A stretch of 64,000 bases of DNA from Candidatus Omnitrophota bacterium (GCA_021735655.1 JAIPGM010000002.1:160001-224000); one strand, 5' to 3'; positions 15,066 through 59,845 are shown, counted from the first letter of the stretch. Numbers and translations: made by a program. Notes: generated by a model from the letters alone, not told the origin.

Positions 15066-18000
15066 ATGAAGCGTCGAAAAATTCCCATAGATGGAAATAC
15101 CGCAGCAGCTCATGTTGCTCATGCTACCAATGAAGTTATTGCGATTTATCCGATAACCCCTTCCTCTGGTGTTGGGGAGATGGCTGACGAAAAGTCAGCT
15201 AAAGGCGAGACTAATATTTGGGGTCAGATACCAGTAGTCTCAGAACTTCAATCAGAAGGTGGAGCTTCTGGGGCCGTTCACGGAGCACTTTCAGCCGGCA
15301 GCCTTACAACTACTTTTACCGCATCTCAGGGCTTGTTGTTAATGGTTCCGAATATGTTTAAGATCGCCGGCGAGTTAACGCCAACCGTTTTTTATGTAAC
15401 TGCTCGCACTGTAGCAACTCATGCGCTTTCGATATTTTGTGACCATTCTGATGTTATGGCGGCACGTTCTACGGGCTTTGGAATTTTATTTGCAAACAGC
15501 GTTCAGGAAGTTATGGATTTAGCTTTGATTGCCCAGAGTTCAACTCTAAAAACTCGAGTTCCCTTGCTGATGGTTTATGATGGTTTTCGTACTTCTCATG
15601 AAATTCAAAAGGTAGAGGAGCTAGCTAAAGAAGATATGTTAGCTTTAATTGATTTTGGAGATATTACTGCTCATCGCAGACGAGCGCTTACCCCAGATTG
15701 TCCGACCATAAAAGGTACATCACAGAATCCTGATGTTTTTTTTCAAGAAAGAGAAACTGTAAATGCTTTTTATGAAAATGCACCGGATATTGTTCAAACG
15801 GCAATGGATAAATTTTCTAAGCAAGTTGGCAGGAGTTATAGTCTTTTTGAGTATGTTGGAGCGCCCGATGCCGAAAGAATCGTTGTGATTATGGGTTCTG
15901 GCGCTGAAACCGTTCATGAGACTGTTGATTATCTAACTAAACAGGGCGAAAAGGTAGGCCTGGTTAAGGTTAGACTTTATCGTCCATTCTCGGTTGATGC
16001 TTTTGTTGATAGTTTTCCTAAGACTACTAAAGCAATAGCTGTTTTAGACAGAACTAAAGAGCCGGGGGCAATTGGTGAGCCACTTTATCTAGATGTGCGT
16101 TCAGCTATCGGTGAAGCTTTGGAGAATAAAGTTGCCCCTTTTAAAGAGTGGCCTAAAATCATTGGTGGCCGGTATGGTTTAGGTTCGAAAGAATTTACCC
16201 CTTGCATGGTTAAGGCAGTTTTTGATAATTTAGCTAAGAGTGAAGTTAAAAACCATTTTACCGTCGGCATTGAAGACGATTTAACCAACCACAGTTTAGA
16301 GACTAATAGTTGTTTTTCATCTGAGAATACGCAAAACTTTAGAGGTGTTTTTTACGGTCTCGGTTCTGACGGAACCGTTGGTGCTAATAAGAATTCAATT
16401 AAAATAATTGGTGAATTGACTGATAATTATGTTCAGGCTTATTTTGTTTATGATTCAAAGAAGGCTGGAGCTCGCACCGCTTCTCATCTTCGTTTTGGAA
16501 AAGATCCAATCCGTAGCACCTACCTTATTCAGCAGGCGAACTTTGTCGCTTGTCATAATTTTTCTTTTGTCGAGAAGTTTGACTTGCTTTCAGTTGCTGA
16601 GGAAGGCGCAACCTTTCTTTTGATTAGTCCTTACGGTAAGGATCAAGTTTGGGATCGTCTTCCAATCGAAGTCCAGAAGGAAATAATTCAAAAGAAACTT
16701 AAATTTTATGTGATTAATGCAACTAAACTTGCTGAAAGTTTGGGCTTAGGGGCAAGAATTAACACGATTATGCAGACAGCCTTTTTTACAATCAGTAATA
16801 TTTTACCGATTGATCAGGCAATAACAGCCATAAAAGATGCGATTAAGAAAACTTACGGCAGTAAGGGTGATAAAGTGGTACAGATGAATATGGCTGCGGT
16901 TGATAAAGCGGCTGGGGCTATTGAAGAGGTGTTGGTGCCTAGTGAGGCTACTAGTAAAATTTCTATACCTTTGGTTGTCCCTGATAATTCGCCAGAGTTT
17001 GTGAAAAAAGTAACTGCTAAAATTATTGAAGGCAAGGGCGATGAATTACCGGTGTCGGCCTTCCCTAATGACGGAACTTACCCGACTGCGACCACTCAAG
17101 TTGAAAAACGTAATATTGCCACTCAGATTCCTGAGTGGGATCCATTAGTTTGCATTCAGTGCGGACAGTGTTGTTTGATGTGTCCGCACGGAGTTATCCG
17201 AATGAAGATATATAATAAGGACCAATTGACTAAGGCTCCAGCTGAATTTAAGCATACTCAGGCCAAAGGTAAGGATTTGGAAAGTAAGGCCTTTACGCTT
17301 CAAGTTGCCCCTGAGGATTGCACTGGTTGTGGAGTCTGCGTTAATAGTTGTCCGGTGTTCAAAAAGGATGATAATAGTAAGCCTACCGACAAAAAGGCAA
17401 TTAATATGGTTGCTCAAATTCCAGTACGTGAGCGTGAACGGAAAAGCTTCGAGTATTTTCTCTCTTTGCCGGATATGAAGATTGAGGATTTACCGATCCC
17501 AATCAGCACTGTTAAAGGTTCTCAACTCATGCGACCGTTATTTGAATTTTCCGGTGCTTGTGCTGGATGTGGAGAAACCGCTTATGTTAAATTGATGACT
17601 CAGCTTTTCGGAGATCGAGCCTTAATCGCCAACGCGACAGGGTGTTCGTCTATTTACGGTGGTAACTTGCCGACCACTCCTTATTGTGTTAATAGTGATC
17701 AACGTGGTCCAGCTTGGTCTAATTCTCTTTTTGAGGATAATGCTGAGTTTGGCTTCGGTATGCGTTTGAGTTTGGATCAGATTAATGATCGGGCCAAGCA
17801 GTTACTTAAAGAATTACTTAGCAAGAAAGCCCTAGGGGATAATTCTACCTTAGCTAATGAAATACTTAATGGCAATCAGGATACTCATCAGGATATCGAA
17901 AATCAACGCTTAAGAGTGGCAAAGCTTAAAGATGTTTTGAAGAAACTTTCTAATGATAAGCTGGCTCAAGAGTTATTGTCATTTGCTGATCAACTGGTTA

Positions 18001-18665
18001 AAAAATCGGTATGGATTTTAGGTGGTGACGGGTGGGCTTATGATATTGGTTACGGTGGTCTGGATCACGTTTTGGCTTCAGGTAAAAATATTAATGTTTT
18101 AGTTTTGGACACTGGGGTTTATTCAAATACCGGCGGCCAGATGTCTAAAGCGACTCCGATGGGCGCGATAGCTAAATTTGCTGCCGCTGGTAAGCCATTA
18201 CCGCGCAAAGATTTAGCAATGCTTGCTATGAGTTACGGTAATGTGTACGTTGCTCGTATTGCCATGGGTGCAAATTCAGCTCAGACCCTCAAAGCATTTT
18301 TAGAAGCTGAAAGCTATCCTGGCCCCTCAATAATTATTGCTTATTCTCAATGCATTGCTCACGGTATCAATATGACTAAAGGTGTGGATGCACAAAAAAA
18401 GGCTGTTGCTTCTGGTGATTGGCCTTTGGTAAGATTTAATCCTCAGTTATTAAAAGAGAAGAAAAATCCTTTGCAGCTTGACAGCAAGTCGCCGAGCATA
18501 CCTTTAGAAGAATATATCTACAGTGAAAATAGATTTAAAGCTTTAAAAACTGCAGCGCCGGAAAGAGCAGAGATGCTATTGAAGTTGTCACAGGAAGAAA
18601 TTATTAGAAGATTTAAGATTTATGAATATCTATCAAAGATGGATTGTTGCAATTCGGACGAATAA
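15066..18665 (+). CDS. nifJ: Pyruvate:ferredoxin (flavodoxin) oxidoreductase, homodimeric single-chain type
   Basis: 1199 aa. TPP-binding and ferredoxin-like domain with two CxxCxxCxxxCP motifs (CIQCGQCCLMCP; CTGCGVCVNSCP). Strong RBS GAGGAGG. Confidence 0.93.
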   Translation: MKRRKIPIDGNTAAAHVAHATNEVIAIYPITPSSGVGEMADEKSAKGETNIWGQIPVVSELQSEGGASGAVHGALSAGSLTTTFTASQGLLLMVPNMFKIAGELTPTVFYVTARTVATHALSIFCDHSDVMAARSTGFGILFANSVQEVMDLALIAQSSTLKTRVPLLMVYDGFRTSHEIQKVEELAKEDMLALIDFGDITAHRRRALTPDCPTIKGTSQNPDVFFQERETVNAFYENAPDIVQTAMDKFSKQVGRSYSLFEYVGAPDAERIVVIMGSGAETVHETVDYLTKQGEKVGLVKVRLYRPFSVDAFVDSFPKTTKAIAVLDRTKEPGAIGEPLYLDVRSAIGEALENKVAPFKEWPKIIGGRYGLGSKEFTPCMVKAVFDNLAKSEVKNHFTVGIEDDLTNHSLETNSCFSSENTQNFRGVFYGLGSDGTVGANKNSIKIIGELTDNYVQAYFVYDSKKAGARTASHLRFGKDPIRSTYLIQQANFVACHNFSFVEKFDLLSVAEEGATFLLISPYGKDQVWDRLPIEVQKEIIQKKLKFYVINATKLAESLGLGARINTIMQTAFFTISNILPIDQAITAIKDAIKKTYGSKGDKVVQMNMAAVDKAAGAIEEVLVPSEATSKISIPLVVPDNSPEFVKKVTAKIIEGKGDELPVSAFPNDGTYPTATTQVEKRNIATQIPEWDPLVCIQCGQCCLMCPHGVIRMKIYNKDQLTKAPAEFKHTQAKGKDLESKAFTLQVAPEDCTGCGVCVNSCPVFKKDDNSKPTDKKAINMVAQIPVRERERKSFEYFLSLPDMKIEDLPIPISTVKGSQLMRPLFEFSGACAGCGETAYVKLMTQLFGDRALIANATGCSSIYGGNLPTTPYCVNSDQRGPAWSNSLFEDNAEFGFGMRLSLDQINDRAKQLLKELLSKKALGDNSTLANEILNGNQDTHQDIENQRLRVAKLKDVLKKLSNDKLAQELLSFADQLVKKSVWILGGDGWAYDIGYGGLDHVLASGKNINVLVLDTGVYSNTGGQMSKATPMGAIAKFAAAGKPLPRKDLAMLAMSYGNVYVARIAMGANSAQTLKAFLEAESYPGPSIIIAYSQCIAHGINMTKGVDAQKKAVASGDWPLVRFNPQLLKEKKNPLQLDSKSPSIPLEEYIYSENRFKALKTAAPERAEMLLKLSQEEIIRRFKIYEYLSKMDCCNSDE

Positions 18666-46867: not shown

Positions 46868-47798
46868 TTCACCACATTTTTTATCAAAAGTCGATACTCA
46901 GCATTTAATGACTCAAGTGCTTGTAGGCTTAATCCCGGTAATTTGCGCTTCAGTATACTTTTTCGGCCTAAGGGCAGGATTGCTTATTTTGAACTGTATG
47001 GTGACCGCAATAGCCACTGAGGCGGTTATTCTATACTTACGTAAGAAAGCTTTAGCGATAACTGATGGTAGTGCCGCAGTTACTGGGTTGCTTTTAGCCT
47101 TGATTTTGCCTCCGACGACTAAGTGGTATGCCGCTACTATGGGTTCAGTTTTTGCAATTTTTATTGGAAAACATATTTTCGGTGGCCTAGGTGCTAATAT
47201 ATTTAATCCGGCCTTAATTGCCAGGGCCTTTTTGATGGCTGCTTACCCTAAAATGCTGACCACTTTTAGCGCGCCGATTCGTTGGTTAATTGTGAAGCCT
47301 CAACAATGGGATTCTATAAGTCAAGCTACACCTTTAGTATTAAAAAAATTTAGTCAGGAAATTACACCTAATCTTGATTTATTTATTGGCAATATTTCCG
47401 GCAGCCTCGGTGAGACATCAGCTATTTGCATAATTATTGGCGGATTGTATCTTTTGATTCGAAAAATTGCTGATTGGCGAATTCCTTTGTCGCTGATTGT
47501 GACTGTGGTCATAATTTCAGAGATTGGTTTTATTTTAAGGCCAACTAACGCCGACGTGTTGTTTCATCTTTTTAGTGGAGGGTTGTTGTTGGGGGCGCTG
47601 TTTATGGCTACCGATCCAGCTACGACCCCGATTACTAAAAAAGGACGATATATTTTCGGTATAGCTTGTGGTGCATTGATTATGGTAATTCGCTATTTTG
47701 GTGGTTTACCGGAGGCGGTCATGTATTCGATTCTTTTCATGAATGCCTTGACGCCTTTAATTAATCGCTATACGCTCCCAAAGGCATTTGGAAGATGA
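46848..47798 (+). CDS. rnfD: Rnf complex subunit D
   Basis: 316 aa polytopic NqrB/RnfD-family membrane protein with FMN-attachment-like SGxxxT region (ATDPATTP). Confidence 0.85.
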   Translation: MPLKISSSPHFLSKVDTQHLMTQVLVGLIPVICASVYFFGLRAGLLILNCMVTAIATEAVILYLRKKALAITDGSAAVTGLLLALILPPTTKWYAATMGSVFAIFIGKHIFGGLGANIFNPALIARAFLMAAYPKMLTTFSAPIRWLIVKPQQWDSISQATPLVLKKFSQEITPNLDLFIGNISGSLGETSAICIIIGGLYLLIRKIADWRIPLSLIVTVVIISEIGFILRPTNADVLFHLFSGGLLLGALFMATDPATTPITKKGRYIFGIACGALIMVIRYFGGLPEAVMYSILFMNALTPLINRYTLPKAFGR

Positions 47799-48397
47799 AA
47801 GAAATAATTAAAATTATTGTAGTTTTAACTTTAGTCTGCATTATTTGTGCGTTTTTTTTAGCTTTAGTTCAAGGCTTAGCTGAGAAAAAAATTGAGTTTA
47901 ATGCTGCTAAAAGAATAAAGGACGCGATATCTAATCTTGCTCCTGGTTATTCAGATATTGAAGAAATTGTTGTAGAGGAAGATGTCATTTATAAGTTAAA
48001 AGATAAATCAGGAAAGTCAATCGGCTATGCTTTCTCAGCTCAAGGCCAAGGCTACCAGGGAAAGATAAAAATCTTAGCGGTAGCCAACCCTTCCTTGAAT
48101 CGCCTTGAGGGAATTGAAATAGTCGACTCTTTAGAGACTCCTGGTTTAGGAGCAAAGATACAGGAAGAACCTTTTAGTGGTCAGTTTAAGGGACTTAATT
48201 TAGGCGAATCAATCCAGTGTGTTAAGGGTGCTTCGACTGATGACGATAAGGTCCCGGCTGTTAGTCAAGCGACAAAAGTCTACTCAAAGAGTCAAATTGA
48301 AGCAATTACTGGAGCAACCGTTTCCTCAAGGGCAGTGGTTAATATCTTAAATGAACGTATTAAAATATTACATAAGCAGTTAAAGAAAGATAACTAG
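47795..48397 (+). CDS. rnfG: Rnf complex subunit G (FMN-binding)
   Basis: 200 aa. N-terminal TM plus FMN_bind domain with the covalent-FMN motif SGATVSS. Confidence 0.8.
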   Translation: MKEIIKIIVVLTLVCIICAFFLALVQGLAEKKIEFNAAKRIKDAISNLAPGYSDIEEIVVEEDVIYKLKDKSGKSIGYAFSAQGQGYQGKIKILAVANPSLNRLEGIEIVDSLETPGLGAKIQEEPFSGQFKGLNLGESIQCVKGASTDDDKVPAVSQATKVYSKSQIEAITGATVSSRAVVNILNERIKILHKQLKKDN

Positions 48398-48410
48398 GGT
48401 TTGTTAGAAA

Positions 48411-48992
48411 ATGAAAAAAGAATTTATTAAAGGCCTTTGGAAAGAGCATCCGGTATTTCGTCAACTTCTTGGTATGTGCCCGACCTTAGCCGTAACTACT
48501 TCGGCGATTAACGGTCTTTCTATGGGGCTGGCGGTAATTTTTGTTTTGTTTTTTTCATCCTTAGTGGTTGCTTTGATTAAAAAATTAATTCCCCATCAAG
48601 TAAGAATTGCTGTTTATACTGTGATTATTGCTACCTTTGTTACTATCGTTGATCTGTTCTTCAAGGCTCAATTTCCTGAGATTAGTCGTGCTCTCGGGCC
48701 TTATATTCCTTTAATTATTGTTAACTGCATTATTTTAGGAAGGTGTGAAGCCTTTGCTTCAAAGCACTCAGTTTCATCATCTTTATTTGATGCTTTGGGG
48801 ATGGGTTTAGGCTTTACTTGGGGGGTATTTTTGCTCGGTTCAATTCGAGAGCTATTTGGTGCCGGAACAATTCTCGGATTTCGTTTATTTCCTTTAAGCT
48901 ATAATCCGTTGATCGTAATGATTCTTCCGGCTGGAGCATTTCTAGTCCTAGGTTTTTTAGTCGCAACAATGAATAAATTAGAACAAAAATGA
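48411..48992 (+). CDS. rnfE: Rnf complex subunit E
   Basis: 193 aa RnfE/NqrD-family membrane protein (LGMCPTLAVT.., NCIILGR). Confidence 0.85.
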   Translation: MKKEFIKGLWKEHPVFRQLLGMCPTLAVTTSAINGLSMGLAVIFVLFFSSLVVALIKKLIPHQVRIAVYTVIIATFVTIVDLFFKAQFPEISRALGPYIPLIIVNCIILGRCEAFASKHSVSSSLFDALGMGLGFTWGVFLLGSIRELFGAGTILGFRLFPLSYNPLIVMILPAGAFLVLGFLVATMNKLEQK

Positions 48993-49573
48993 ACGAATTA
49001 TTATTAATTTTTATTTCAGCGATTTTAGTCAACAATTTGGTGCTTTCTTACTTTCTCGGAATTTGTCCTTTCTTGGGCGTTTCAGGAAAGGTTGAATCAG
49101 CCTTTGGGATGGGGTTGGCGGTTACTTTTGTGATGGTTTTGGCAACTAGCATTAGTTGGTTAATTTATCATTTAGTTTTAGTAAAGTTTGGATTGCTTTT
49201 TTTGCAATACGTAATCTTTATCTTAGTGATCGCATCTTTAGTTCAGATGGTCGAAATGTTTATTCGCAAATTTTCAAATTCGCTTTATCAAGCTCTAGGT
49301 ATATATTTACCATTAATCACCACTAATTGTGCCATTTTGGGTGCGGCTCTTTTTATGGTAACTAGAAACTACTCATTTTTAGAATCAGTAGTTTTTGGAT
49401 TTTCTGGTGGTTTGGGTTTTTCTTTAGTTCTTTTGGTTATGGCTGGAATTCGCCAAGAACTTGATTATGCTGATATTCCTGAGGTATTTAAAGGTGCACC
49501 AATAACTTTAATTATTGCTGGTTTACTAGCATTAATTTTTATGGGATTTTCTGGTTTGTTTAGCAGTATATAA
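48989..49573 (+). CDS. rnfA: Rnf complex subunit A
   Basis: 194 aa RnfA/NqrE-family membrane protein (LGICPFLGVS.., NCAILG). Confidence 0.85.
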   Translation: MNELLLIFISAILVNNLVLSYFLGICPFLGVSGKVESAFGMGLAVTFVMVLATSISWLIYHLVLVKFGLLFLQYVIFILVIASLVQMVEMFIRKFSNSLYQALGIYLPLITTNCAILGAALFMVTRNYSFLESVVFGFSGGLGFSLVLLVMAGIRQELDYADIPEVFKGAPITLIIAGLLALIFMGFSGLFSSI

Positions 49574-49574
49574 A

Positions 49575-50378
49575 ATGATTATTAGCGCAGTGGTAACTTT
49601 AGGTTTGGTTGGTTTTCTTTTTGCGTTACTTTTAGCTTTTTTGAGTAAAAAGTTACAGGTTGAAGAAGACCCAAAAGTTAAAACGGTTCTTGAGATCGTT
49701 CCTGGCTTGAACTGCGGAGCTTGTGGCTTTTCCGGTTGTCGCCCATTTGCTGAAGCAGTAGCTAGAGAATCTAAAATTTTTAATGGTTGTCTTCCTGGTG
49801 GTCAGGAAATTAACGATAAGATATCACAAATTCTCGGCATTACCGGTTGTTCGGGATTAAAAAGTCAGGTTGTTATCTGTTGTTGTGGTGCTGATGAGAC
49901 TGCGAAAAAAATATCAACCAAATATATTGGGCCGCAAACCTGCCAAGCAGCCCAGATTACTGGTGGGGCCTTAGATTGCCGATATGGATGTTTTGGTTTT
50001 GGTGATTGTTTAGGAATTTGTCCGGTCGGCGCCTTAACTTTGGATAAAAAGAAAATTAAGGTTGATATTGCTAAATGCATTGGTTGTGGCCAATGTGTTG
50101 AGATTTGTCCGCGCAATCTATTTAAAATAACTCCCTTGCCTGAAATTACTGGTTTTTATTCGGTTGCTTGCAGCAATAAGGAGAAAGCAATGAATGTAAA
50201 GAAGGTTTGCGCTCAAGGGTGTATTGCTTGCACAATTTGCACTCGAGTGCCTGAATCACCTTACTACATGAAAGATAATCTTTCTTATATTGATTATTCC
50301 AAATCAAACAACACTGAACCGCTTCAGGCAGGAATGGACAAATGCCCAACTAAATGTATAGTAAAACTTGATGGATAA
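49575..50378 (+). CDS. rnfB: Rnf complex subunit B (polyferredoxin)
   Basis: 267 aa. N-terminal TM, then NCGACGFSGC and several CxxCxxCxxxCP ferredoxin motifs. Confidence 0.8.
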   Translation: MIISAVVTLGLVGFLFALLLAFLSKKLQVEEDPKVKTVLEIVPGLNCGACGFSGCRPFAEAVARESKIFNGCLPGGQEINDKISQILGITGCSGLKSQVVICCCGADETAKKISTKYIGPQTCQAAQITGGALDCRYGCFGFGDCLGICPVGALTLDKKKIKVDIAKCIGCGQCVEICPRNLFKITPLPEITGFYSVACSNKEKAMNVKKVCAQGCIACTICTRVPESPYYMKDNLSYIDYSKSNNTEPLQAGMDKCPTKCIVKLDG

Positions 50379-50763
50379 AGAAGTCGTCAGGGTTGAAAAA
50401 GTTATTGGGGATAAAGTAAGAGTTCAATTTGAAAGAAAAGTTAGTTGCTCTTGTTGTCGTTTAGAATCCGTTTGCGCTCAGAGAAAGGGAAATTTTGATA
50501 TTGAGCGAAGAGGTTTTTCTTTAAAGGCGGGCGATAAAGTAGAGGTTGCTATTGATGGAAATAAAGGGCTACTTGCTGTGGTTTTAACTTTTTTCTTTCC
50601 GGCAGCCGTATTTATGGCTAGCGTAATCATTTTTCAAGACAAAGGCGAGCTGATAAGTTTTTTTATTGCTTTGGTGATTGTCTGCTTATATTATTTAATC
50701 CTTAAACTGATAGTCAAAAGATTTAAAAACAAATTTGAGTTAAAAATTTTAAAAAAGCTATGA
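50368..50763 (+). CDS. rseC: RseC/MucC-family (SoxR-reducing system) membrane protein
   Basis: 131 aa. N-terminal CSCCRLESVC cysteine cluster plus two C-terminal TM helices. Sits at the 3' end of the rnf operon. Confidence 0.6.
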   Translation: MMDKEVVRVEKVIGDKVRVQFERKVSCSCCRLESVCAQRKGNFDIERRGFSLKAGDKVEVAIDGNKGLLAVVLTFFFPAAVFMASVIIFQDKGELISFFIALVIVCLYYLILKLIVKRFKNKFELKILKKL

Positions 50764-51359
50764 ATATAGCAATATTAGCCTCTGGTAATGGCAGTAATTT
50801 TGAAGCAATTGCTAAAGCGATAAGGCGCGGCCAGATTAGGGCAGAAGTGAAACTTTTAATTACTGATAAGCCACAAGCCTTTGCTCGATTCAGAGCGAAG
50901 AAGTTAAAAATAAAAGATATTTTTATTAATCCTGATAATTATCCATCGAGACTTCTGTTTGATAAAAAACTAGTAGAGGTTTTAAAGATTGATAAAATTG
51001 ATTTAGTAGTTTTGGCCGGATATATGAGAATTCTCTCACCGTACTTTGTAAAAAAATATAAAAATAAAATTTTAAATATTCATCCTTCTCTACTTCCGCG
51101 TTTTAAGGGTGTTAACGCTATCGCTCGAGCTTTTAACCATGGATCTAAATTAACTGGGGTTACTGTACATTTTGTGGATAGTAAAGTTGATCATGGACCA
51201 GTAATTCTACAAAGTTCAATTTTAATAAAAAAAAGCATGAAGCTAAAAAGCTTAGAGAAAGAAATTCATAAACTGGAACATAAGTTATACCCCTTAGCGA
51301 TTAAGTTGTTTGCTGAAAAAAAGTTAAAAGTAAGGGGGAGGAAAGTTGCGATTAACTAA
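50760..51359 (+). CDS. purN: Phosphoribosylglycinamide formyltransferase
   Basis: 199 aa. ILASGNGSN, the folate-binding NIHPSLLP motif, HxxD catalytic pattern. Confidence 0.82.
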   Translation: MNIAILASGNGSNFEAIAKAIRRGQIRAEVKLLITDKPQAFARFRAKKLKIKDIFINPDNYPSRLLFDKKLVEVLKIDKIDLVVLAGYMRILSPYFVKKYKNKILNIHPSLLPRFKGVNAIARAFNHGSKLTGVTVHFVDSKVDHGPVILQSSILIKKSMKLKSLEKEIHKLEHKLYPLAIKLFAEKKLKVRGRKVAIN

Positions 51360-51780
51360 GCTTGTTATCTTGGTTTTTGGTTTATTCTTGTTGTTAGGGG
51401 CTGGAGAGTCAGGCCAAATAGTTAAGGCCACGGTCAATAAGAATAAGGTCTCAACAGGAGAATTGTTAATTTATACTGTAACTATTGAGGGTATTTTTAA
51501 AGATCCTCAAGTAACCCCACCAGAATTTAAGGACTTTAAAGTTAGTTCGCAAAGCAATTCGCAAAACTACTATTTTTCTGGATCCGGAACTAAAATAAAC
51601 ATAACGTTAATTTATACATTACTTGCTCTCAAGGCTGGTAATTTTAGTCTTGGCCCAACAGTCATTAAAGATGAGGGGGAAGAGTACAAAAGTAACGTTG
51701 TTGATATTGCTGTAGAGGGTAAGCCTTTTAAGGAAAAAAAGAAAATCCTACCGTATATTGATGAAGGCCTAGAAATTTAA
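51346..51780 (+). CDS. Small secreted hypothetical protein
   Basis: 144 aa. N-terminal signal-like TM (LVILVFGLFLLLGAG) and a beta-rich body. No confident family. Confidence 0.4.
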   Translation: MRLTKLVILVFGLFLLLGAGESGQIVKATVNKNKVSTGELLIYTVTIEGIFKDPQVTPPEFKDFKVSSQSNSQNYYFSGSGTKINITLIYTLLALKAGNFSLGPTVIKDEGEEYKSNVVDIAVEGKPFKEKKKILPYIDEGLEI

Positions 51781-53828
51781 GGAATTCTACGTATATTTTC
51801 CTCGGCCTTTCGGGCATTAAGATAATCCCCATACTCATAAAATAAGTCATGAGCTTTTAGGAAATTTTCTTTAGCTTTTTGGTTTTCTCCTAAAGCGGAG
51901 TAGGTTCTGCCCATGCCGAAGTATACCTGCGGAGAATCAGGTTTTATTATTAAAGCTTTACGGAAGTGCTGAATTGCTTTTTTGTATTGAACTAAGTTGG
52001 TATAAGTTTCCCCTAGGCTATAATGTATTTGAAAGTTGTCAGGGTCAAGGCGCAATGCCTTCTCAAGGTAGTTTAGGGCTTTTTGTTGTTCTGAGGCGTT
52101 TTTATTTTTTAGGCCTAGTTCATTATGGGCCTTAGACAGGCTAACATATATATCGGGAGATTCCGGAATTGAAGCAAGGACTTTTTCATATTTAGTAATT
52201 GCTCTTTCGTATTGACCTAAAGTTAAATAAGTATTCGCTAATCCGAGTTCCGCTGAGATAGAGGTTGGGTCTAATCTTAGGGCCTTTTCGAAATTATCTA
52301 TTGCCTTTTGAGAATCGCCTAAAAGTCTATAGACATCGCCCAAAGATAAATAGGTTAGAAAATAATCATCTTTTAGTTTTTGTGACCTTAGAAGATACTG
52401 TAATGCTTTTTGATATTGGCCAAGCCTTAGGTACACACTTCCAATGCTGCGGTAAATCTCTGGGTCTTTAGAATTTTTGGCTTCGGCATTTTCAATTGCT
52501 CGTTCAAGATATTGCAATGCTTCTTCAGGAATTCCTAAATCAGCGTAAATCTTGCTTAAAGCCTCGATGATGCCCGGGTAGTCAGGCTGTGCGAGAAAGA
52601 CCTGTTTGAATTCTTCAAGAGCTTCCTTGGGCCTATCAAGAATGCGGTAACATTCACCTAAAGGAAAATGAATTGTTGGGTTTCTAGGATCCAGTTTTAG
52701 CGCATAATTAAAAGCAGCCAGGGCTTGTTTGTGGCGACCCAAATTCATGTAGGTTTCACCGAGCAGCACTTGTGCGTAGATATAACCTGGTGAAATTTCA
52801 AGAGTTTTTCTACAGAAGGCTATTACTTTGTCGAAATTTTTGTTTTCACCTTGAGAATACCGATAGGCTTGACTTAGATAAAAGTTTGCTTTATAGAGTT
52901 TAAATAGTGTTTTATTACTGTCAGCTTCGGGTGGGTACAAGAAAACTTTGTTAACTTCACCAGTTGATGATTTGAATAAAACTGTTTTTGTTTTTTTATT
53001 AAAGTTATCGTTTATTGTAGCGCGTTTGATTTGGATAAAAGAAGAGTAGTTTTCGACTATTTCTCTAGTTATTCTTTCAACTTCTTTATCGGGCGTTGGG
53101 ATATCCGGACTATACTTTTTAATTCGGACATTAAAATCGACTATTATCCGAGAGCTTTGGTAGCGAACATCAATATCGTTAACTTCAAAGTTATCGTTTA
53201 AGCTCGGGGCCAAAAAGGTTCTAGAAATTCTTTCTTGAATTAGCATAGGAATAAACTCAGCTAAGCCAACATTATATTTGCGGAGGTAACGACCACGATC
53301 ATCTTCTAGTATGTTTTTATCGATAAAGGGAGTTTGAAAAGAAATAATTCGTTTTTCAAATTCATAGGCGGATATGTTAGTCGCTAAACCATAAGTGGCT
53401 AAGGTTAGTCTTATCTGATCAGGAATAAATATCAGTTCGTATTGGTTCATCCTGATTAAATTTATTCCTTTTAGACGTTGGATATCGGATTTAACAAAAC
53501 AATAAAATATTGGCGGAGCATCCATATTGAGAAGGGCTCGTTGTATTGATTGAGAAATTTTTCTGACAGTTTCAGACAAGTCTTCATCAACTTTTCCTTC
53601 TTCGTTTACTTTAAATTTGCCAGCTTCATCAAAAAATTCAACCGGGGCATAAACCCAAAGAGTCTCTCCAACCAGCCAAGTGCTTACTTCGATTTTATGC
53701 TCTTCCCTACAGATTTTTTTTATTATTTCGGCAATATCTTTACGTGAATAGGTTGGTGGGACAGAACAGGAAATTAGTAGAAGAGCGCAAAAACTAAGCA
53801 GGAGGTTTTTGAGAGGTATTTTTTGCAT
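51777..53828 (-). CDS. TPR-repeat lipoprotein (N-terminal unknown domain plus ~9 TPR units)
   Basis: 683 aa. Signal peptide with lipobox LLISC. The C-terminal half is a series of 34-aa TPR units (..A..Y.LG..Y...G....A...F..AL.L.P..). Its start overlaps the 3' end of the tandem ftsH by 35 nt. Confidence 0.75.
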   Translation of the reverse strand: MQKIPLKNLLLSFCALLLISCSVPPTYSRKDIAEIIKKICREEHKIEVSTWLVGETLWVYAPVEFFDEAGKFKVNEEGKVDEDLSETVRKISQSIQRALLNMDAPPIFYCFVKSDIQRLKGINLIRMNQYELIFIPDQIRLTLATYGLATNISAYEFEKRIISFQTPFIDKNILEDDRGRYLRKYNVGLAEFIPMLIQERISRTFLAPSLNDNFEVNDIDVRYQSSRIIVDFNVRIKKYSPDIPTPDKEVERITREIVENYSSFIQIKRATINDNFNKKTKTVLFKSSTGEVNKVFLYPPEADSNKTLFKLYKANFYLSQAYRYSQGENKNFDKVIAFCRKTLEISPGYIYAQVLLGETYMNLGRHKQALAAFNYALKLDPRNPTIHFPLGECYRILDRPKEALEEFKQVFLAQPDYPGIIEALSKIYADLGIPEEALQYLERAIENAEAKNSKDPEIYRSIGSVYLRLGQYQKALQYLLRSQKLKDDYFLTYLSLGDVYRLLGDSQKAIDNFEKALRLDPTSISAELGLANTYLTLGQYERAITKYEKVLASIPESPDIYVSLSKAHNELGLKNKNASEQQKALNYLEKALRLDPDNFQIHYSLGETYTNLVQYKKAIQHFRKALIIKPDSPQVYFGMGRTYSALGENQKAKENFLKAHDLFYEYGDYLNARKAEENIRRIP

Positions 53829-56800
53829 ACTTTTTAAAAATTAGTTCTAGTTCAGATTGGGTAAGCTCTTCTTTTTTTAACAATTCACTTGTTAAATGTT
53901 CGAATAAATCTTTTTCTTTTTCTAATAAAGCAACGGTTGATTTAAGGCAATCCTGAAGTAATTCTTGAGTTTCCATATCTAACTTTGATTTCATTTCTTC
54001 AGACAGTAGATTGTTTTCGTTTTGTTCAAATAAAAAGTCACCAATGTATCCTGAACGACCCATGCCCCAACGCCAAACCATTGATCTAGCATACCACATC
54101 GAAGTTTTAAAATCCTGAGAAACACCATTGGTAGTGCTGGCAGTAATTTTCTCAGCAGCATATCCACCAAGAAAAATCTTGATAGTGGACAATAGTTCTT
54201 CCTTGGTGCCGGCGGAACGATCTCCTTTGGTAGCATACCAAGCTACACCTAAAGTTTTGTCTCTTGGAATAATAGATAACTTAAAGGGGAAATTTCCTTT
54301 TCCAAAAAAATACTCAGCTAAACAATGTCCGGCTTCATGGTAGGCGGTGGCCTTAAGCTCCTCGGGGGTTAATTTTAATTTCTTTTTTAAGCCTAATTCT
54401 ATTCTTTCTCGAGCTTCATCGAGCTCTTTCATACCCAGAATAGTTTTTTTCATTTTAGCAGTTAGAAGAGTGCCTTCTTTAATTAAATTAGCTATATCAG
54501 CCGGGGAATAACCCGGAGTAATACCGGCAAACATTTCAGGGTCAATCTCATCTTTGTTATACTTAGTTTTAGAAAGATAAAACTGAAATAACTGCTTTCT
54601 TTCGTCAAAGGTTGGTAAAGAAACATGGAGTTTTCGATCAAACCTTCCCGGCCTAAGAACCGCTTTATCCAAGTTACTTTCATCGGTATTGGTAGCGCCA
54701 ATAATAACAATATTATATTCAGCATCCTTTTCCTTTAAACCGTCCATTTCAACTAAAAATTGGTTTAAAGTTTGATTATGTTCTTGAGTACCGCCGAAAC
54801 CTTTGTCCATAGCCCTTTTGGCGCATAAAGCATCAATTTCATCAATAAAAATTATACAGCCACCTTTGGCTAATGCTTGCTCTCTAGCTTCCCTGAACAT
54901 TTGGCGCACTCGGCTTGCGCCCACACCGACAAACATTTCTACGAATTCTGAACCAGCCTTAGCGATAAAAGGGATCCCTGCCTCATTAGCGATAGCAGAG
55001 GCAAGATAAGTTTTTCCGCATCCAGGAGGGCCAAGCATTAACAAACCCTTAATAATTTGTCCACCCATTTGTTTTAGGTTGGCTCGGTCTTTTATTAAGC
55101 TGACAATTTCTTTGGCTTCGTCTTTTGCGCCTTCCATACCAATGATATCATCCCAACCTATAGAATCTTTTTTTGACTTTTTCATTCCTTCCATTATATA
55201 AGTAAGCCTAGTTTTCCCATGTTTTTTGAAGGTTTCTTCTATTTGATCGTAATCTAACTCTTCTTCTTTTAATAAACGGTTAGCAATTTCATCTAAAATT
55301 ACTTTTTCTCGACGTAATATTTCATTGACTTCATCCAAACATTTATTAATGATATCTTCTTTGTCTCTTTCAGAAATTTGCGAAGGGAAGCCATGTTCTT
55401 GAGTTATACCTCCTGGGCCCGAAGTCCCCATGCCCCACTGATCTACCATTTTCATCGCTAGATTGTTTGCTTGTTTAAGATCTTTCCCTACTCCGGAAGA
55501 TACCGAACCAAAGCGAATTTTTTCAGCAGCATAACCACCAAGAAAACTCTTTATTTGACCTAAAAGATATTCTTTATCCGGGATGTGGCGTTCTTCTTTG
55601 TCCCTTGTCCAGGTAACCCCTCCGGCTGAACGTCTAGGAATAATACTAGCCTTAAAAACATCTTGAGTTGGCACTAAAAAGTAAGTAGCCAGTGTGTGTC
55701 CGGCTTCATGGTAGGCGGCAATTTTTTTATCTTGGAGAGATAACACATATTCAGCTTTTATCCCGATATCGATTCTTTCTTTTGCGTCATGGATGTCGGA
55801 CAAATCAACTTGATTTTTTTTCTTACGGGTAGCAATTAGAGAAGATTCACGAACAATGTTTGCTATGTCAGCTGGGCTATTGCCAACTGTAAAACGAGCT
55901 AACTTAGCAAAATCAATTTTTTCCTTATTGTAGGAAATCTTGGTGAAATAGTATTGTAAAAGATCTTCACGTTCTTTTAACCCGGGGAGCCCAACATAAA
56001 CTTTGCGGTCGAATCGTCCGGGACGCATTAGGGCGCTATCAAGTTCACTCTCGGGAACATTTGTCGCCGCGATTATTACGATATTGTCTTTGGCAGTATC
56101 TAACCCGTCCAATTCAGTTAAAAGCTGATTAACGGTAGCATTATAATCTTGACCGGCACGGCCGCCTCCGGAACTTTCTATTCTCGGTCGGGCGAAAGTA
56201 TCAATTTCATCGATAAAAATTATACAACCACCATCTATTTCAGCGGAGATTCTGGCTTCCTTAAATAGGCTTTTTACTCGATTGGCGCCAACCCCGACAA
56301 ACATACCTTGGAATTCACTACCGGCAACGTGAAGAAAGGGGAGTTTCGTTTCAGTAGCGATAGCTTTAGCCAGATAAGTCTTTCCGCATCCAGGAGGGCC
56401 AATCATTAAAACACCTTTAATAATTTTTCCGCCAACCCGGTCTAAATTAGTATGGTCATTTATGAGCTGAATTACTTCCCAGACTTCCTTCTTTATGTTT
56501 TCCATCCCAATAACGTCAGACCATCTGACATTCACTGATTGCGGTTTTACTTTTTTTGATTTTAATTTATCAAGACCTCCCCCCCAAAGAAAGTATACAA
56601 ATATACTTGTCGTTATTGCACCGGATACAGTACCGACAATTAGCATAAAAAAGATTTGCAGAGGAATACCGGCAAGCATTGATTTACGAAAAAAAGAATC
56701 TAACTGGAAGAAGGTTCGAAGGCCAACAGTGGTTAAAGCAATTATGCTTAGAATTAGGAGAATAGCTACACTTATTATCGTAACTTTTATCCAGTGTAGT

Positions 56801-56871
56801 TTTATATACTTTGTTAATCGTTGATTTGAGCTATTTGCCATGGATTCGCCTCCCGAGATTAAGAATACCAT
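53794..56871 (-). CDS. ftsH: Tandem-duplicated FtsH-like AAA+ zinc metalloprotease (TM-AAA-M41-AAA-M41 in one polypeptide)
   Basis: 1025 aa with two N-terminal TM helices. Module 1 has Walker A GPPGCGKT, Walker B IIFIDEID, pore loop MFVGVG, SRH RPGRFDR and HEAGH. Module 2 has the same complete motif set ([34 protein letters not shown]). Confidence 0.85.
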
Positions 56872-56977
56872 ATATTTTTATTATTGTCTACTTCTTAGAT
56901 GTTGCCAACACCTATTTTAATAAGGTTTCCCTGCTCTGTAAGCGATTACATCTATATTCATATATATAAAAAATAGC

Positions 56978-57005
56978 TTGCTAAAACAACCGAATAAGCT
57001 ATAAT
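56978..57005 (+). promoter_or_regulatory. Candidate promoter of hflKC (TTGCTA-16 nt-TATAAT), implying a very short or absent leader
   Basis: The -10 ends 8 nt before the hflK ATG at 57013. No Shine-Dalgarno is evident. Confidence 0.35.
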
Positions 57006-57012
57006 CTATTTT

Positions 57013-58026
57013 ATGGAATTTCAAAGTCGACAGCCCGATGAAATCTTTCAAAATTTAAAACAAAAATTTAGTGGCCAGAGGCCGAAAGGTTTTTGGTTTC
57101 CTTTACTAATTGGTATTGCTATCTTGTCTATATTTTTAAACGGGGCCGGACTTTCTCCCAATCCTTTTTATACTATTCAGCCAGACGAAGTTGGTGTTGT
57201 TTTACGTTTTGGAAAATTCATCAAGGCCACTAATCCTGGTCTTCATTTTAAGTATCCTTTAATTGAAAGAGTTATCCCAGTTAAGGTTGAGAAAGTTTAC
57301 ACTGAAGAGTTTGGCTTTAGAACTCAATCCCCAGGGGTAAGAACTGTCTATAGCCCGAAGTCGTTTGATGATGAGTCGTTAATGCTTACCGGAGATTTAA
57401 ATGTATTAGATTTAGAATGGATTGTTCAATATAAAATAAGTGACCCTTTCGGTGCTTTGTTTAATATACGAAAATTGGTTAAGGCTATACGTGATGTTTC
57501 TGAGTCAGTAGTTCGAAGATTAGTCGGCGATCATTCTTTTAACGAAGTTCTTACTACCGAACGAATAGAGATAAATAATCAAATTCAAGATGAGATGCAA
57601 GAAATTCTTGATTCTTACAACTGTGGAATTCAAATCGTTAAGGTAAAATTACAAGATGTTAACCCGCCTGACCCGGTTAAACCAGCCTTTAATGAAGTAA
57701 ACCAGGCAAAGCAGGAGCGAGAGAAGTTGAAGAACCAGGCTTGGGAAGTTTATAACCAAAAAATACCACAAGCCAAGGGCGAAGCTCTTAAGTTATTTCA
57801 AGAAGCTGAGGGTTACGCTACCGAGAAGGTTAATTGGGCAAAGGGTGATGCGGAGCGTTTCTTGCTGCTTTATAAAGAATACACCAAAGCTAAAGATGTC
57901 ACCTTGAAACGACTGTACTTAGAAAACATGAGTCAAATTCTTAAAAAAGCTGGTAAAAAATACATTCTTGATCCTAAAGAAAAGGGGATTCTTCCCTTAC
58001 TAAAGCTAGAGAGTCAAAATGAATAA
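57013..58026 (+). CDS. hflK: FtsH protease modulator HflK (SPFH/band-7)
   Basis: 337 aa. N-terminal TM, SPFH domain (VVLRFGKF..), C-terminal coiled coil. Confidence 0.8.
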   Translation: MEFQSRQPDEIFQNLKQKFSGQRPKGFWFPLLIGIAILSIFLNGAGLSPNPFYTIQPDEVGVVLRFGKFIKATNPGLHFKYPLIERVIPVKVEKVYTEEFGFRTQSPGVRTVYSPKSFDDESLMLTGDLNVLDLEWIVQYKISDPFGALFNIRKLVKAIRDVSESVVRRLVGDHSFNEVLTTERIEINNQIQDEMQEILDSYNCGIQIVKVKLQDVNPPDPVKPAFNEVNQAKQEREKLKNQAWEVYNQKIPQAKGEALKLFQEAEGYATEKVNWAKGDAERFLLLYKEYTKAKDVTLKRLYLENMSQILKKAGKKYILDPKEKGILPLLKLESQNE

Positions 58027-58966
58027 GAAGTTTGGTTTAATTCCTTTAATAATTATTTTTGTAGTTATTTTGCTAGGCAATCCTTTTTATGTCATAACTG
58101 AAGGCCAACAGGCAGTGATTACTTTATTAGGTAAACCAAAGCGTATAGTTATTGAGTCAGGATTAAAGTTAAAGGTTCCTTTTCTTGAGAAAGTAAATAA
58201 ATTTGAAAAGCGAATATTAGAGTGGGATGGTTACCCTAACGAGATACCAACTAAAGATAAACGTTACATTTGGATTGATACTACTGCTCGTTGGAGAATA
58301 GTCGATGCTTTGAAATTTTTTAAAGCCGCTTCCTCAGAACGTGGTGCCCAAACCATACTCGACGGGATTATTGATGCAGCGGTCAGAGATGCGATTACCG
58401 CTCAGAAATCAACTGAAGTTGTGCGGTCTTCGAACAGGTTACTGGAAAGTCTAAAAACTGCTAAAACCGAAGAAGGCTTTGTTGATGAGAGCGCCTTGGA
58501 TGCAACTGAGATTGGTCGAGACAAAATTCGTGAAGAGATAGTTGAAAAAGCAAGGGGAGACTTAGGCTCTCGCTATGGAATCGAGCTAATTGATGTCAGA
58601 ATTAAACGAATTAATTATATCGAAAAAGTTCAACAGGATGTCTACGAGCGAATGATTGCTGAACGTAAACGAGCCGCTGAGCAATATCGTTCTGAAGGAA
58701 GAGGGATTAGGGCTGATGTTGAAGGGCGTACCGAAAAAGAGCTTAAGTCGATTCTTTCAGAAGCTTATAAGAAGGCTCAAACCATTAAAGGTGAAGCTGA
58801 TGCCGAGTCTACAAAGATTTATGCTGATGCTTATGGGAAAGATCCTGAATTCTTCGCATTTTTAAAAACTCTCGAAACTTACAATGATACCGTTGATAAA
58901 AATACGATAATTATCCTAACTACTGAAGGGGAGTATTATAAGTATTTGAATGCAATCAATCCTTAA
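58019..58966 (+). CDS. hflC: FtsH protease modulator HflC (SPFH/band-7)
   Basis: 315 aa. N-terminal TM, SPFH domain (QQAVITLLGKP..). Overlaps the hflK stop. Confidence 0.8.
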   Translation: MNKKFGLIPLIIIFVVILLGNPFYVITEGQQAVITLLGKPKRIVIESGLKLKVPFLEKVNKFEKRILEWDGYPNEIPTKDKRYIWIDTTARWRIVDALKFFKAASSERGAQTILDGIIDAAVRDAITAQKSTEVVRSSNRLLESLKTAKTEEGFVDESALDATEIGRDKIREEIVEKARGDLGSRYGIELIDVRIKRINYIEKVQQDVYERMIAERKRAAEQYRSEGRGIRADVEGRTEKELKSILSEAYKKAQTIKGEADAESTKIYADAYGKDPEFFAFLKTLETYNDTVDKNTIIILTTEGEYYKYLNAINP

Positions 58967-58993: not shown

Positions 58994-59845
58994 ATGAATA
59001 CTGCAACTTTATTAATATCTTGTCCCGATCAAAAAGGCATAACCGCAAGTATTACCGATTTTATTTATCGGCATCAAGGAAATATTGAACATGCCGATCA
59101 ACATATCGATTTTCAATCTAATATCTTTTTCATGCGGATCGAATGGTCTTTGGATAATTTTGAAATTCCCAAAGATAAAATTAAAGAATCATTCAATTCT
59201 CTAGCTGATAAGTTCAGAATGAACTTTTCGCTTCATTTTAGTTCTAAAATTCCCCGAATGGCAATTTTTGTCTCAAAGCAAACCCATTGTCTCTACGATT
59301 TACTGCTTAAATACAAACAGGGGCACTTGCGTTGCGAGATACCTTTAATAATTAGTAATCATTCCGAAGTTAAAGAAATTGCTAAAAGTTTTAACCTGAA
59401 GTTTTTCTATTCAGTTAAGAATCAAAAAAATAAAGTAGCTTCTGAAAATAAAGAGCTGACCTTACTAGCTAAGGAAAAAGTAGATTTTCTTGTCTTAGCC
59501 AGATACGGACAAATTTTTACCAAAGAGTTTGTTGAAAATTTCCCTAGTCGAATTATAAATATCCATCATTCTTTTTTACCGGCCTTTATTGGCTCAGATC
59601 CTTATCGTCAGGCTTATTCTCGGGGAGTTAAAATTATTGGAGCAACTAGTCATTACGTAACTGAAGCTCTTGATGCTGGGCCGATTATTGATCAGGACAT
59701 TACTAGGGTTAGTCACCGCGACTGCTTAGAAGATTTGAAGCGGGAAGGCCAAGATTTAGAGCGCACAGTCCTAAGTCGGGCAGTTCGTTGGCACCTTGAG
59801 CACAAAATCTTAGTTTATGCTAATAAAACTGTTGTTTTTGATTAA
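58994..59845 (+). CDS. purU: Formyltetrahydrofolate deformylase
   Basis: 283 aa. N-terminal ACT domain and C-terminal formyl-transferase domain (NIHHSFLPAF, HxxD). Confidence 0.8.
   Translation: MNTATLLISCPDQKGITASITDFIYRHQGNIEHADQHIDFQSNIFFMRIEWSLDNFEIPKDKIKESFNSLADKFRMNFSLHFSSKIPRMAIFVSKQTHCLYDLLLKYKQGHLRCEIPLIISNHSEVKEIAKSFNLKFFYSVKNQKNKVASENKELTLLAKEKVDFLVLARYGQIFTKEFVENFPSRIINIHHSFLPAFIGSDPYRQAYSRGVKIIGATSHYVTEALDAGPIIDQDITRVSHRDCLEDLKREGQDLERTVLSRAVRWHLEHKILVYANKTVVFD

Follow-up and report, generated by a model that had tools for sequence, protein, structure and literature searches.

A tandem FtsH lacking the periplasmic domain and its linked lipoprotein family in Omnitrophota

The membrane protease FtsH is universal and often essential; in Escherichia coli, its gene is not adjacent to hflKC. 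Here we analyse an ftsH locus in a stretch of 64,000 nucleotides (nt; hereafter the window) from Candidatus Omnitrophota bacterium (GCA_021735655.1, JAIPGM010000002.1:160001-224000), which encodes an FtsH with two tandem modules, a predicted lipoprotein with tetratricopeptide repeats (TPRs), HflK and HflC (Table 1). All four open reading frames (ORFs) had been described in an earlier reading of this DNA (the original prediction) and were confirmed. The E. coli FtsH is an AAA+/M41 zinc protease on two transmembrane (TM) helices, with one AAA-M41 module per chain and an alpha+beta periplasmic domain of ~70 residues. This domain forms a hexameric cap (PMC13097134) and is touched by HflK at residues 62-64 (PMC12048511), and how it and HflKC control substrate access is still an open question (PMC13097134, PMC12048511). 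The FtsH of the window is the same type of protease on two TM helices, with orthologues of HflK and HflC encoded alongside. However, the periplasmic domain is absent, each chain has two modules, and the operon also contains a gene for a separate lipoprotein. The two adjacent genes may encode a two-gene, Omnitrophota-type FtsH protease, in which the lipoprotein would be the periplasmic subunit and three tandem chains would form a pseudo-hexamer. We consider the chances for and against this reading to be evenly balanced.

The tandem FtsH contains two AAA (PF00004) and two M41 (PF01434) domains and scores 858 bits against the FtsH equivalog model TIGR01241 (cut-off of 600). All characteristic motifs are found twice, namely Walker A GPPGCGKT (aa 148 and 604), the pore loop MFVG with its aromatic residue (aa 180 and 636), Walker B IIFIDEID (aa 207 and 663), RPGRFD with the arginine fingers (second region of homology at aa 273 and 730) and the HExxH zinc-peptidase motif HEAGH (aa 378 and 835). 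Judged by these motifs, both modules look catalytically intact. A hydropathy scan showed only two hydrophobic segments, ~aa 18-40 and 58-85, both N-terminal. In the AlphaFold2 (AF2) model of the chain, helices 4-46 and 49-86 form one long helical hairpin. The two TM helices are linked by a tip of ~15 residues, and the FtsH therefore has no periplasmic domain, in line with the original prediction; the domain is also absent in 11 related FtsHs. Compared with a canonical FtsH, the two TM helices are retained, whereas the folded domain between them and the single AAA-M41 module per chain are not. A tip motif, (L/M)ESF(Y/F)(K/R)K, is found in most of the 12 loci compared, and the tandem locus L039, whose first protease domain is degenerate, departs from it. 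For FtsH and its kin, the PDB contains single-module FtsH, AFG3L2 and YME1 chains only. The widest extent of the ORF is 53794..56871 (-), with a second, upstream ATG candidate at 56871. The start is likely the ATG at 56841 (MANSS...), which has GGGAGG just 5' of it. The identical database protein P0003 (1015 aa, 100% identity) has the same start; it comes from an NCBI metagenome-assembled genome (MAG) of Candidatus Omnitrophica and is annotated merely as 'AAA family ATPase'.

Table 1. Coordinates of the features at the ftsH locus, counted from the first nucleotide of the window
Feature	Position	Strand	Details
Tandem ftsH	53794..56841	-	1015 aa + stop; TM hairpin, AAA-M41, AAA-M41
FtsH N-terminal membrane hairpin	56584..56841	-	aa 1-86; periplasmic tip ~15 residues
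First AAA-M41 module	55207..56544	-	~aa 100-545; HEAGH intact
Second AAA-M41 module	53797..55176	-	~aa 556-1015; no TM segment before it
ftsH/lipoprotein overlap	53794..53828	-	35 nt; ATG within ftsH codons for ...FKKYAK...
Predicted lipoprotein gene	51777..53828	-	683 aa + stop
Predicted lipoprotein signal peptide	53769..53828	-	aa 1-20; lipobox L-I-S-C, Cys21
Novel N-terminal domain	52929..53768	-	mature aa 21-300
C-terminal TPR array	51780..52892	-	~aa 313-683, roughly 10 repeats
Divergent ftsH/hflK spacer	56842..57012	.	171 nt
hflK	57013..58026	+	337 aa; TIGR01933 288.5 bits vs cut-off 159.4; TM aa 24-49
hflC	58019..58966	+	315 aa; TIGR01932 280.6 bits vs cut-off 134.4; TM aa 1-29

The tandem FtsH is widespread in Omnitrophota. 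A large protein database lists 56 cluster representatives of ~950-1060 aa, 55 of which are tandem and one of which has three Walker A motifs. More than 50 independent representatives of ~1000-1025 aa have the tandem layout, from assemblies of NCBI, JGI, ENA and Logan. Those with names are nearly all from Omnitrophota, with two MAGs labelled otherwise (Aureabacteria and Deltaproteobacteria). Frameshift errors can fuse tandem gene pairs, and an error in sequencing or assembly might accordingly have joined two neighbouring ftsH genes into an artefactual chain; otherwise nothing in the analysis favours this. The ORF of 1015 aa is uninterrupted, the second module lacks a separate TM hairpin, and the layout recurs among the 56 listed representatives of ~1000 aa from these four sources. 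The two halves share just 48% identity at the protein level and only patchy similarity at the DNA level, indicating an old duplication rather than an assembly artefact. With such diverged halves and so many independent representatives of the same layout, an artefact is hardly conceivable and was rejected. In a neighbour-joining tree of the modules, the C-terminal modules of the tandems all fall in one clade, which suggests a single old fusion; the tree is crude, midpoint-rooted and without a canonical FtsH outgroup, and is indicative only.

Both HExxH motifs are kept in 20 of the listed representatives, which make up the clade of the window (at least 54% identity). Most of the other listed tandems belong to a sister clade with 46-50% identity, in which the first HEAGH is replaced by YEAGH or YEAGR. 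In this sister clade (P0035-P0099; for example, L039 8001-11054), the first zinc-binding His is lost and the AAA motifs are intact. Its first M41 domain is a built-in pseudo-protease module, recalling the inactive FtsHi of plants, in which the zinc site is likewise lost. The same search returned short single-module forms of ~558-567 aa, as well as forms with a single HExxH and either three (~1100 aa) or four (~1367 aa) Walker A motifs. Two of the multi-AAA forms lie on Omnitrophota contigs, one of 1369 aa with four Walker A motifs and a single HExxH (L043 5001-9110) and one of 1101 aa with three and a single HExxH (L044 5001-8306). Both occupy the syntenic slot of the window ftsH (enolase/divIC upstream and purN downstream), with a gene of the lipoprotein family downstream of each. 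The motor would take the forms AAA-M41, (AAA-M41)x2, AAA3-M41 and AAA4-M41 at one genomic slot. Four AAA modules per chain allow no even division into one hexameric ring. No publication was found on tandem, fused or multi-AAA FtsH, or on FtsH in Omnitrophota or Omnitrophica.

Rings of two diverged FtsH paralogues are known from chloroplasts, cyanobacteria and mitochondria (type A/type B; the m-AAA proteases Yta10/Yta12 and AFG3L2/paraplegin). By analogy, the tandem FtsH would work most like these hetero-hexameric rings, with the subunit types fused. However, the paralogues of the known rings are separate polypeptides, each with its own anchor, whereas the window encodes one chain with a single hairpin. 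Fusion in one chain would fix a 1:1 ratio of the modules, and their alternating order as well if three chains make up one ring. More than one AAA module per polypeptide is also found in the type II AAA+ proteins (p97/Cdc48, NSF and ClpB) and in engineered single-chain ClpX. In the type II proteins, D1 and D2 are stacked as two rings. In the tandem FtsH, each AAA domain has its own protease domain, and side-by-side modules in one ring would therefore be expected. The covalent ClpX rings are laboratory constructs, whereas the tandem FtsH fusion is natural.

The gene contexts of the lipoprotein and of FtsH were compared using loci retrieved with FtsH homologues (L006, L007, L035, L037, L039/L040, L043 and L044) and with lipoprotein homologues (L001, L005, L041, L042, ERZ1426817 and L045-L052). 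A genome-contig scan with the tandem protein contributed L006 and L007, the other 27 matches being remote AAA matches (Bacteroidota, Spirochaetes and Clostridia), and a metagenome-contig search with alignment A1 reaches close relatives only. Wherever the upstream DNA was readable (19 of 19 loci), the gene directly 3' of a periplasmic-domain-less ftsH, and on its strand, encodes a member of the lipoprotein family. The pairing persists across different neighbourhoods (rnf-rseC-purN-batD, smpB, accA/padR, enolase/divIC and a chemoreceptor cluster) and holds for FtsHs with any number of AAA modules from one to four. For the downstream proteins of the AAA3 and AAA4 FtsHs, the E-values against the family profile are 1e-39 and 2e-34, respectively. 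Since the single, triple-AAA and quadruple-AAA FtsHs have the same partner, the link with the lipoprotein is not specific to the tandem fusion. Of the arrangement in the original prediction, the ftsH-lipoprotein pair held in 19 of 19 loci, whereas hflKC (5 of 19), the TPR tail (a minority) and the tandem fusion (some lineages) did not. Each of these three features is found in some lineages only, and L037 and L039 have the tandem fusion without a TPR tail or hflKC. The pair is conserved beyond this genome and the TPRs are not predicted to be cytoplasmic, two points on which the original prediction had staked itself.

The junction between the two genes, which usually overlap, is also conserved. 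The lipoprotein start codon lies within the conserved FtsH C-terminal codons ...(E)IFKK(Y/H)(G/A)K... in 13 loci, and the overlap is an identical 35 nt in 10 of the 13 (the window, where the originally predicted overlap was verified, and L001, L005, L006, L035, L045, L046, L047, L049 and L050). There is no GGAGG-type Shine-Dalgarno sequence upstream of the lipoprotein start, whereas ftsH has one. The junction shows co-transcription and a constrained overlap, from which translational coupling of FtsH and the lipoprotein can reasonably be inferred.

In the lipoprotein of the window, a positively charged n-region and a hydrophobic core precede an L-I-S-C lipobox, and the TPRs come after it; the protein is thus predicted to be a periplasm-facing lipoprotein, in agreement with the original prediction. 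The database protein P0189 appears to be the same protein, with equal length and identical Pfam scores. Searches of Pfam, NCBIfam and the PDB gave no match in aa 1-310, bearing out the claim of an uncharacterised N-terminal domain, and the TPR matches in Pfam and NCBIfam start only from ~aa 313. The AF2 model of the mature N-terminal domain (N-domain) is confident (pLDDT 89.4, pTM 0.87) and consists of four helix-strand-strand units. Foldseek with this model gave no PDB match at E <= 1e-3, and no PDB fold matches the whole four-module arrangement. The closest sub-domain folds are BON and ring-building-motif (RBM) modules, as in DolP, OsmY, PrgK/EscJ, FliF and SpoIIIAH, of which just 70-100 residues align, not significantly, with the N-domain. 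Pfam gave no BON match. The N-domain of the window has insertions at ~aa 120-150 (53400-53470, -), RLKGINLIRMNQYELIF... and ...ATYGLATN..., that are absent from most family members; L006 has only the second.

A profile of 36 members, searched against 50%-identity clusters of 1.84 billion proteins, retrieved 768 representatives at E <= 1e-3 and 609 at E <= 1e-10. The window protein matches the family profile A3 at 2e-54. The family is characterized by a lipobox-type Cys, present in essentially all full-length members, by the motifs TLWVY(L/A)P and EF..QI..R..KF, and by ~270-300 aa of alpha-beta-beta modules. Every named member is a 'hypothetical protein' from Omnitrophota. No sequence relative of the family was found in Pfam, NCBIfam or the PDB, and no publication describing it was found; the FtsH-linked lipoproteins are a previously undescribed family. 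The invariant positions are mostly taken by hydrophobic residues (TLWVY, two Phe and one Tyr), with a single Asp and a single Arg besides, suggesting a scaffold rather than an enzyme, and the N-domain looks like a non-enzymatic alpha/beta scaffold in the predicted model.

Most family members are 260-320 aa long and lack TPRs, which makes the TPR array an addition specific to some lineages. Long members account for 13 of the 150 listed representatives, with TPRs in all 10 of the long ones scanned. A search with aa 21-326 of the window lipoprotein retrieved two standalone lipoproteins of 269-274 aa without TPRs; their contigs encode single-module FtsHs (557-558 aa), with an overlap of exactly 35 nt. 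Thus, the conserved FtsH partner is the N-domain (~280 aa) and not the TPR array. The TPR domain as the conserved partner was rejected, and the original prediction, which had presented the lipoprotein as a TPR partner of FtsH, is revised on this point. L045 combines a single-module FtsH with a lipoprotein ORF of at least 433 aa that runs off the contig (a long tail). Going by this locus, a TPR tail can probably occur alongside a single-module FtsH.

The TPRs had also led the original prediction to an analogy with LapB (YciM), a TPR protein with a functional link to FtsH, which would make the window protein an adaptor presenting LpxC, an enzyme of lipopolysaccharide synthesis, to the protease. 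The gene lies beside ftsH, as this would have it, and the protein has weak matches to the LapB models of NCBIfam (NF008756, NF008757 and NF008755), at 46-66 bits against cut-offs of 363-474. However, LapB has an N-terminal TM anchor, cytoplasmic TPRs and a C-terminal rubredoxin-like zinc domain, whereas the window protein has a lipobox and no Cys cluster at its C terminus. Its TPRs follow the lipobox and would thus be periplasmic, on the opposite side of the membrane from LpxC and the LapB TPRs, and TPRs are altogether lacking in most orthologues of the partner. A LapB-like adaptor is therefore very improbable, and membership in this family was rejected on the topology, the missing rubredoxin-like domain and model scores far under the cut-offs. 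NlpI, an E. coli TPR lipoprotein, is the adaptor for the periplasmic protease Prc. With its lipobox and TPR array, NlpI-Prc would be the closest functional analogy for the TPR tail. In contrast to FtsH, Prc is soluble and periplasmic, and NlpI has no counterpart of the 280-aa N-domain.

In the proposed two-gene protease, the lipoprotein would be exported and lipid-anchored at the periplasmic side, and may dock on the short conserved hairpin tip. It would take over the job of the canonical built-in periplasmic domain, namely ring stabilisation, HflKC-type contacts and envelope-substrate access. The fixed 35-nt overlap would couple the synthesis of the two proteins. A pseudo-hexameric ring would be built from three tandem chains as a trimer of dimers, in which the diverged modules alternate and there are just three membrane hairpins. 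In the lineage of the window, the ~10 TPRs gained may bring in another partner or substrate, from the periplasm or the outer membrane, and the neighbouring HflK and HflC may, as in E. coli, encircle the complex or modulate it. The lipoprotein is a plausible periplasmic component because the pair is conserved, the lipoprotein is predicted to face the periplasm and the FtsH has no periplasmic domain. The crystal hexamer of the Thermus thermophilus FtsH is three-fold symmetric with alternating subunit states (PMC9020784), and a trimer of tandem chains would therefore be compatible with it.

Several observations weigh against the two-gene protease. Physical contact between FtsH and the lipoprotein is itself inferred from the genes. 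The pTM of the AF2 model of the tandem chain is 0.51, and the placement of the modules relative to each other is uncertain. No similarity in fold was detected between the N-domain and the periplasmic domain of FtsH, and the identities of FtsH and the lipoprotein are only weakly correlated in a mirror-tree comparison (r = 0.30, Mantel p ~0.02). The docking surface is small, with a tip of ~15 residues per hairpin for a lipid-anchored protein. The residue at +2 after the lipid Cys is Ser in the window protein and mostly Ser, Thr or Gly, rarely Asp, in the family, which predicts outer-membrane sorting by the Lol rules of E. coli, although these rules may not transfer to this phylum.

The small docking surface and the +2 residues speak for an independent envelope protein, for example an outer-membrane- or peptidoglycan-associated scaffold that is merely co-transcribed with ftsH for co-regulation. 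The nearest sub-domain folds, BON and RBM modules of envelope lipoproteins, point the same way, as does the frequent use of TPR lipoproteins in envelope assembly; models of PilW, Tgl, PorW and BamD-like proteins match the window protein, all below the cut-offs. However, the adjacency survives repeated rearrangement around the pair in 19 of 19 loci, every member with a readable context adjoins an FtsH without the periplasmic domain, and the start codon is locked in the ftsH frame by a fixed 35-nt overlap, an arrangement typical of subunits of one complex. We therefore consider an independent envelope protein rather unlikely.

The roles of substrate adaptor or stress sensor that the original prediction assigned to the lipoprotein are purely conjectural. 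The lipoprotein or its unexported precursor might be a client, an inhibitor or a regulated substrate of FtsH, for example a sensor whose breakdown would signal envelope or lipoprotein-export stress. FtsH degrades membrane proteins from their cytoplasmic ends (PMC13097134), and the overlapping genes are tightly co-expressed. One subfamily of the lipoproteins (P0123-P0154 in alignment A3) has a conserved motif at its extreme C terminus, ...(T)RKPAF, which could be a docking tag or a degron. However, this tail is absent from the window protein, no part of the mature lipoprotein is in the cytoplasm, where FtsH could grip it, and conservation of the fold over 768 representatives argues for a function as a folded protein. 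A client or sensor thus appears distinctly improbable. Where contexts are readable or contigs could be matched, the RKPAF subfamily pairs with the tandem FtsH whose first protease domain is degenerate.

The two-gene protease could be part of a broader picture, which we regard as possible but on the doubtful side. Omnitrophota may have rebuilt FtsH as a split modular machine, in which the periplasmic domain was replaced by a coupled lipoprotein of a new fold and the motor was multiplied within the chain. The tandem FtsH would then be a covalent trimer of dimers with specialised modules, and the TPR-extended lipoprotein would extend in the direction of the outer membrane, tying the envelope status to cytoplasmic proteolysis. 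An FtsH without the periplasmic domain and with an obligatorily linked lipoprotein in its place is a natural separation-of-function experiment. The two-module FtsH and its kin with three or four AAA modules naturally provide a genetically fixed subunit order, which AAA+ researchers otherwise engineer and which is useful for studying subunit coordination and inactive protomers. The pairing also gives a first functional context to several hundred 'hypothetical' lipoproteins of Omnitrophota and corrects the uninformative 'AAA family ATPase' label of the tandem FtsHs in the MAGs of this phylum.

HflK and HflC of the window score above the cut-offs of their equivalog models, have N-terminal TM segments and are encoded by adjacent genes that overlap by 8 nt. 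The hflKC genes adjoin the pair in 5 of the 19 loci, all of the window's own lineage (the window, L001, L006, L035 and L052). The contact site of the E. coli HflK (FtsH residues 62-64) has no counterpart in the window FtsH, yet hflKC is adjacent. Divergent transcription of hflKC from a shared region of 140 nt had been predicted; the divergence stands, whereas with the ftsH start at 56841 the spacer is 171 nt long. Promoter-like hexamers are present on both strands, at 56908..56880 (-) and 56978..57005 (+), with a regional count not above that of shuffled sequences. A terminator scan of the region likewise gave nothing above shuffles, and no Rfam element was found in 50-60 kb of the window.

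Downstream of the lipoprotein gene, there is a convergent gene (51346-51780, +) for a small, secreted protein of 144 aa with a BatD domain (PF13584), with a 4-nt overlap of the 3' ends; the same neighbour is found in L001, L005 and L037. Two formyltransferase genes flank the FtsH locus, one purN-like (50760-51359, +) and one purU-like with an ACT domain (58994-59845, +), and this bracketing is kept in several related contigs, even without hflKC. The tail of an rnf operon (rnfG/E/A/B-like) at 47795-50763 (+) is followed by an RseC/MucC-family membrane protein (PF04246) and then purN, and the rnf-RseC-purN synteny is also found in L001, L006 and L035. Elsewhere, the window has two very large ORFs of 1603 aa (250-5061, +) and 1199 aa (15066-18665, +). 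Almost every gene of the window (1-64000) is encoded on the + strand, and nearly all of its 2-kb bins have a positive GC skew. Minus-strand blocks are few and include the ftsH-lipoprotein pair; at 54-56 kb, the skew falls to -0.13.

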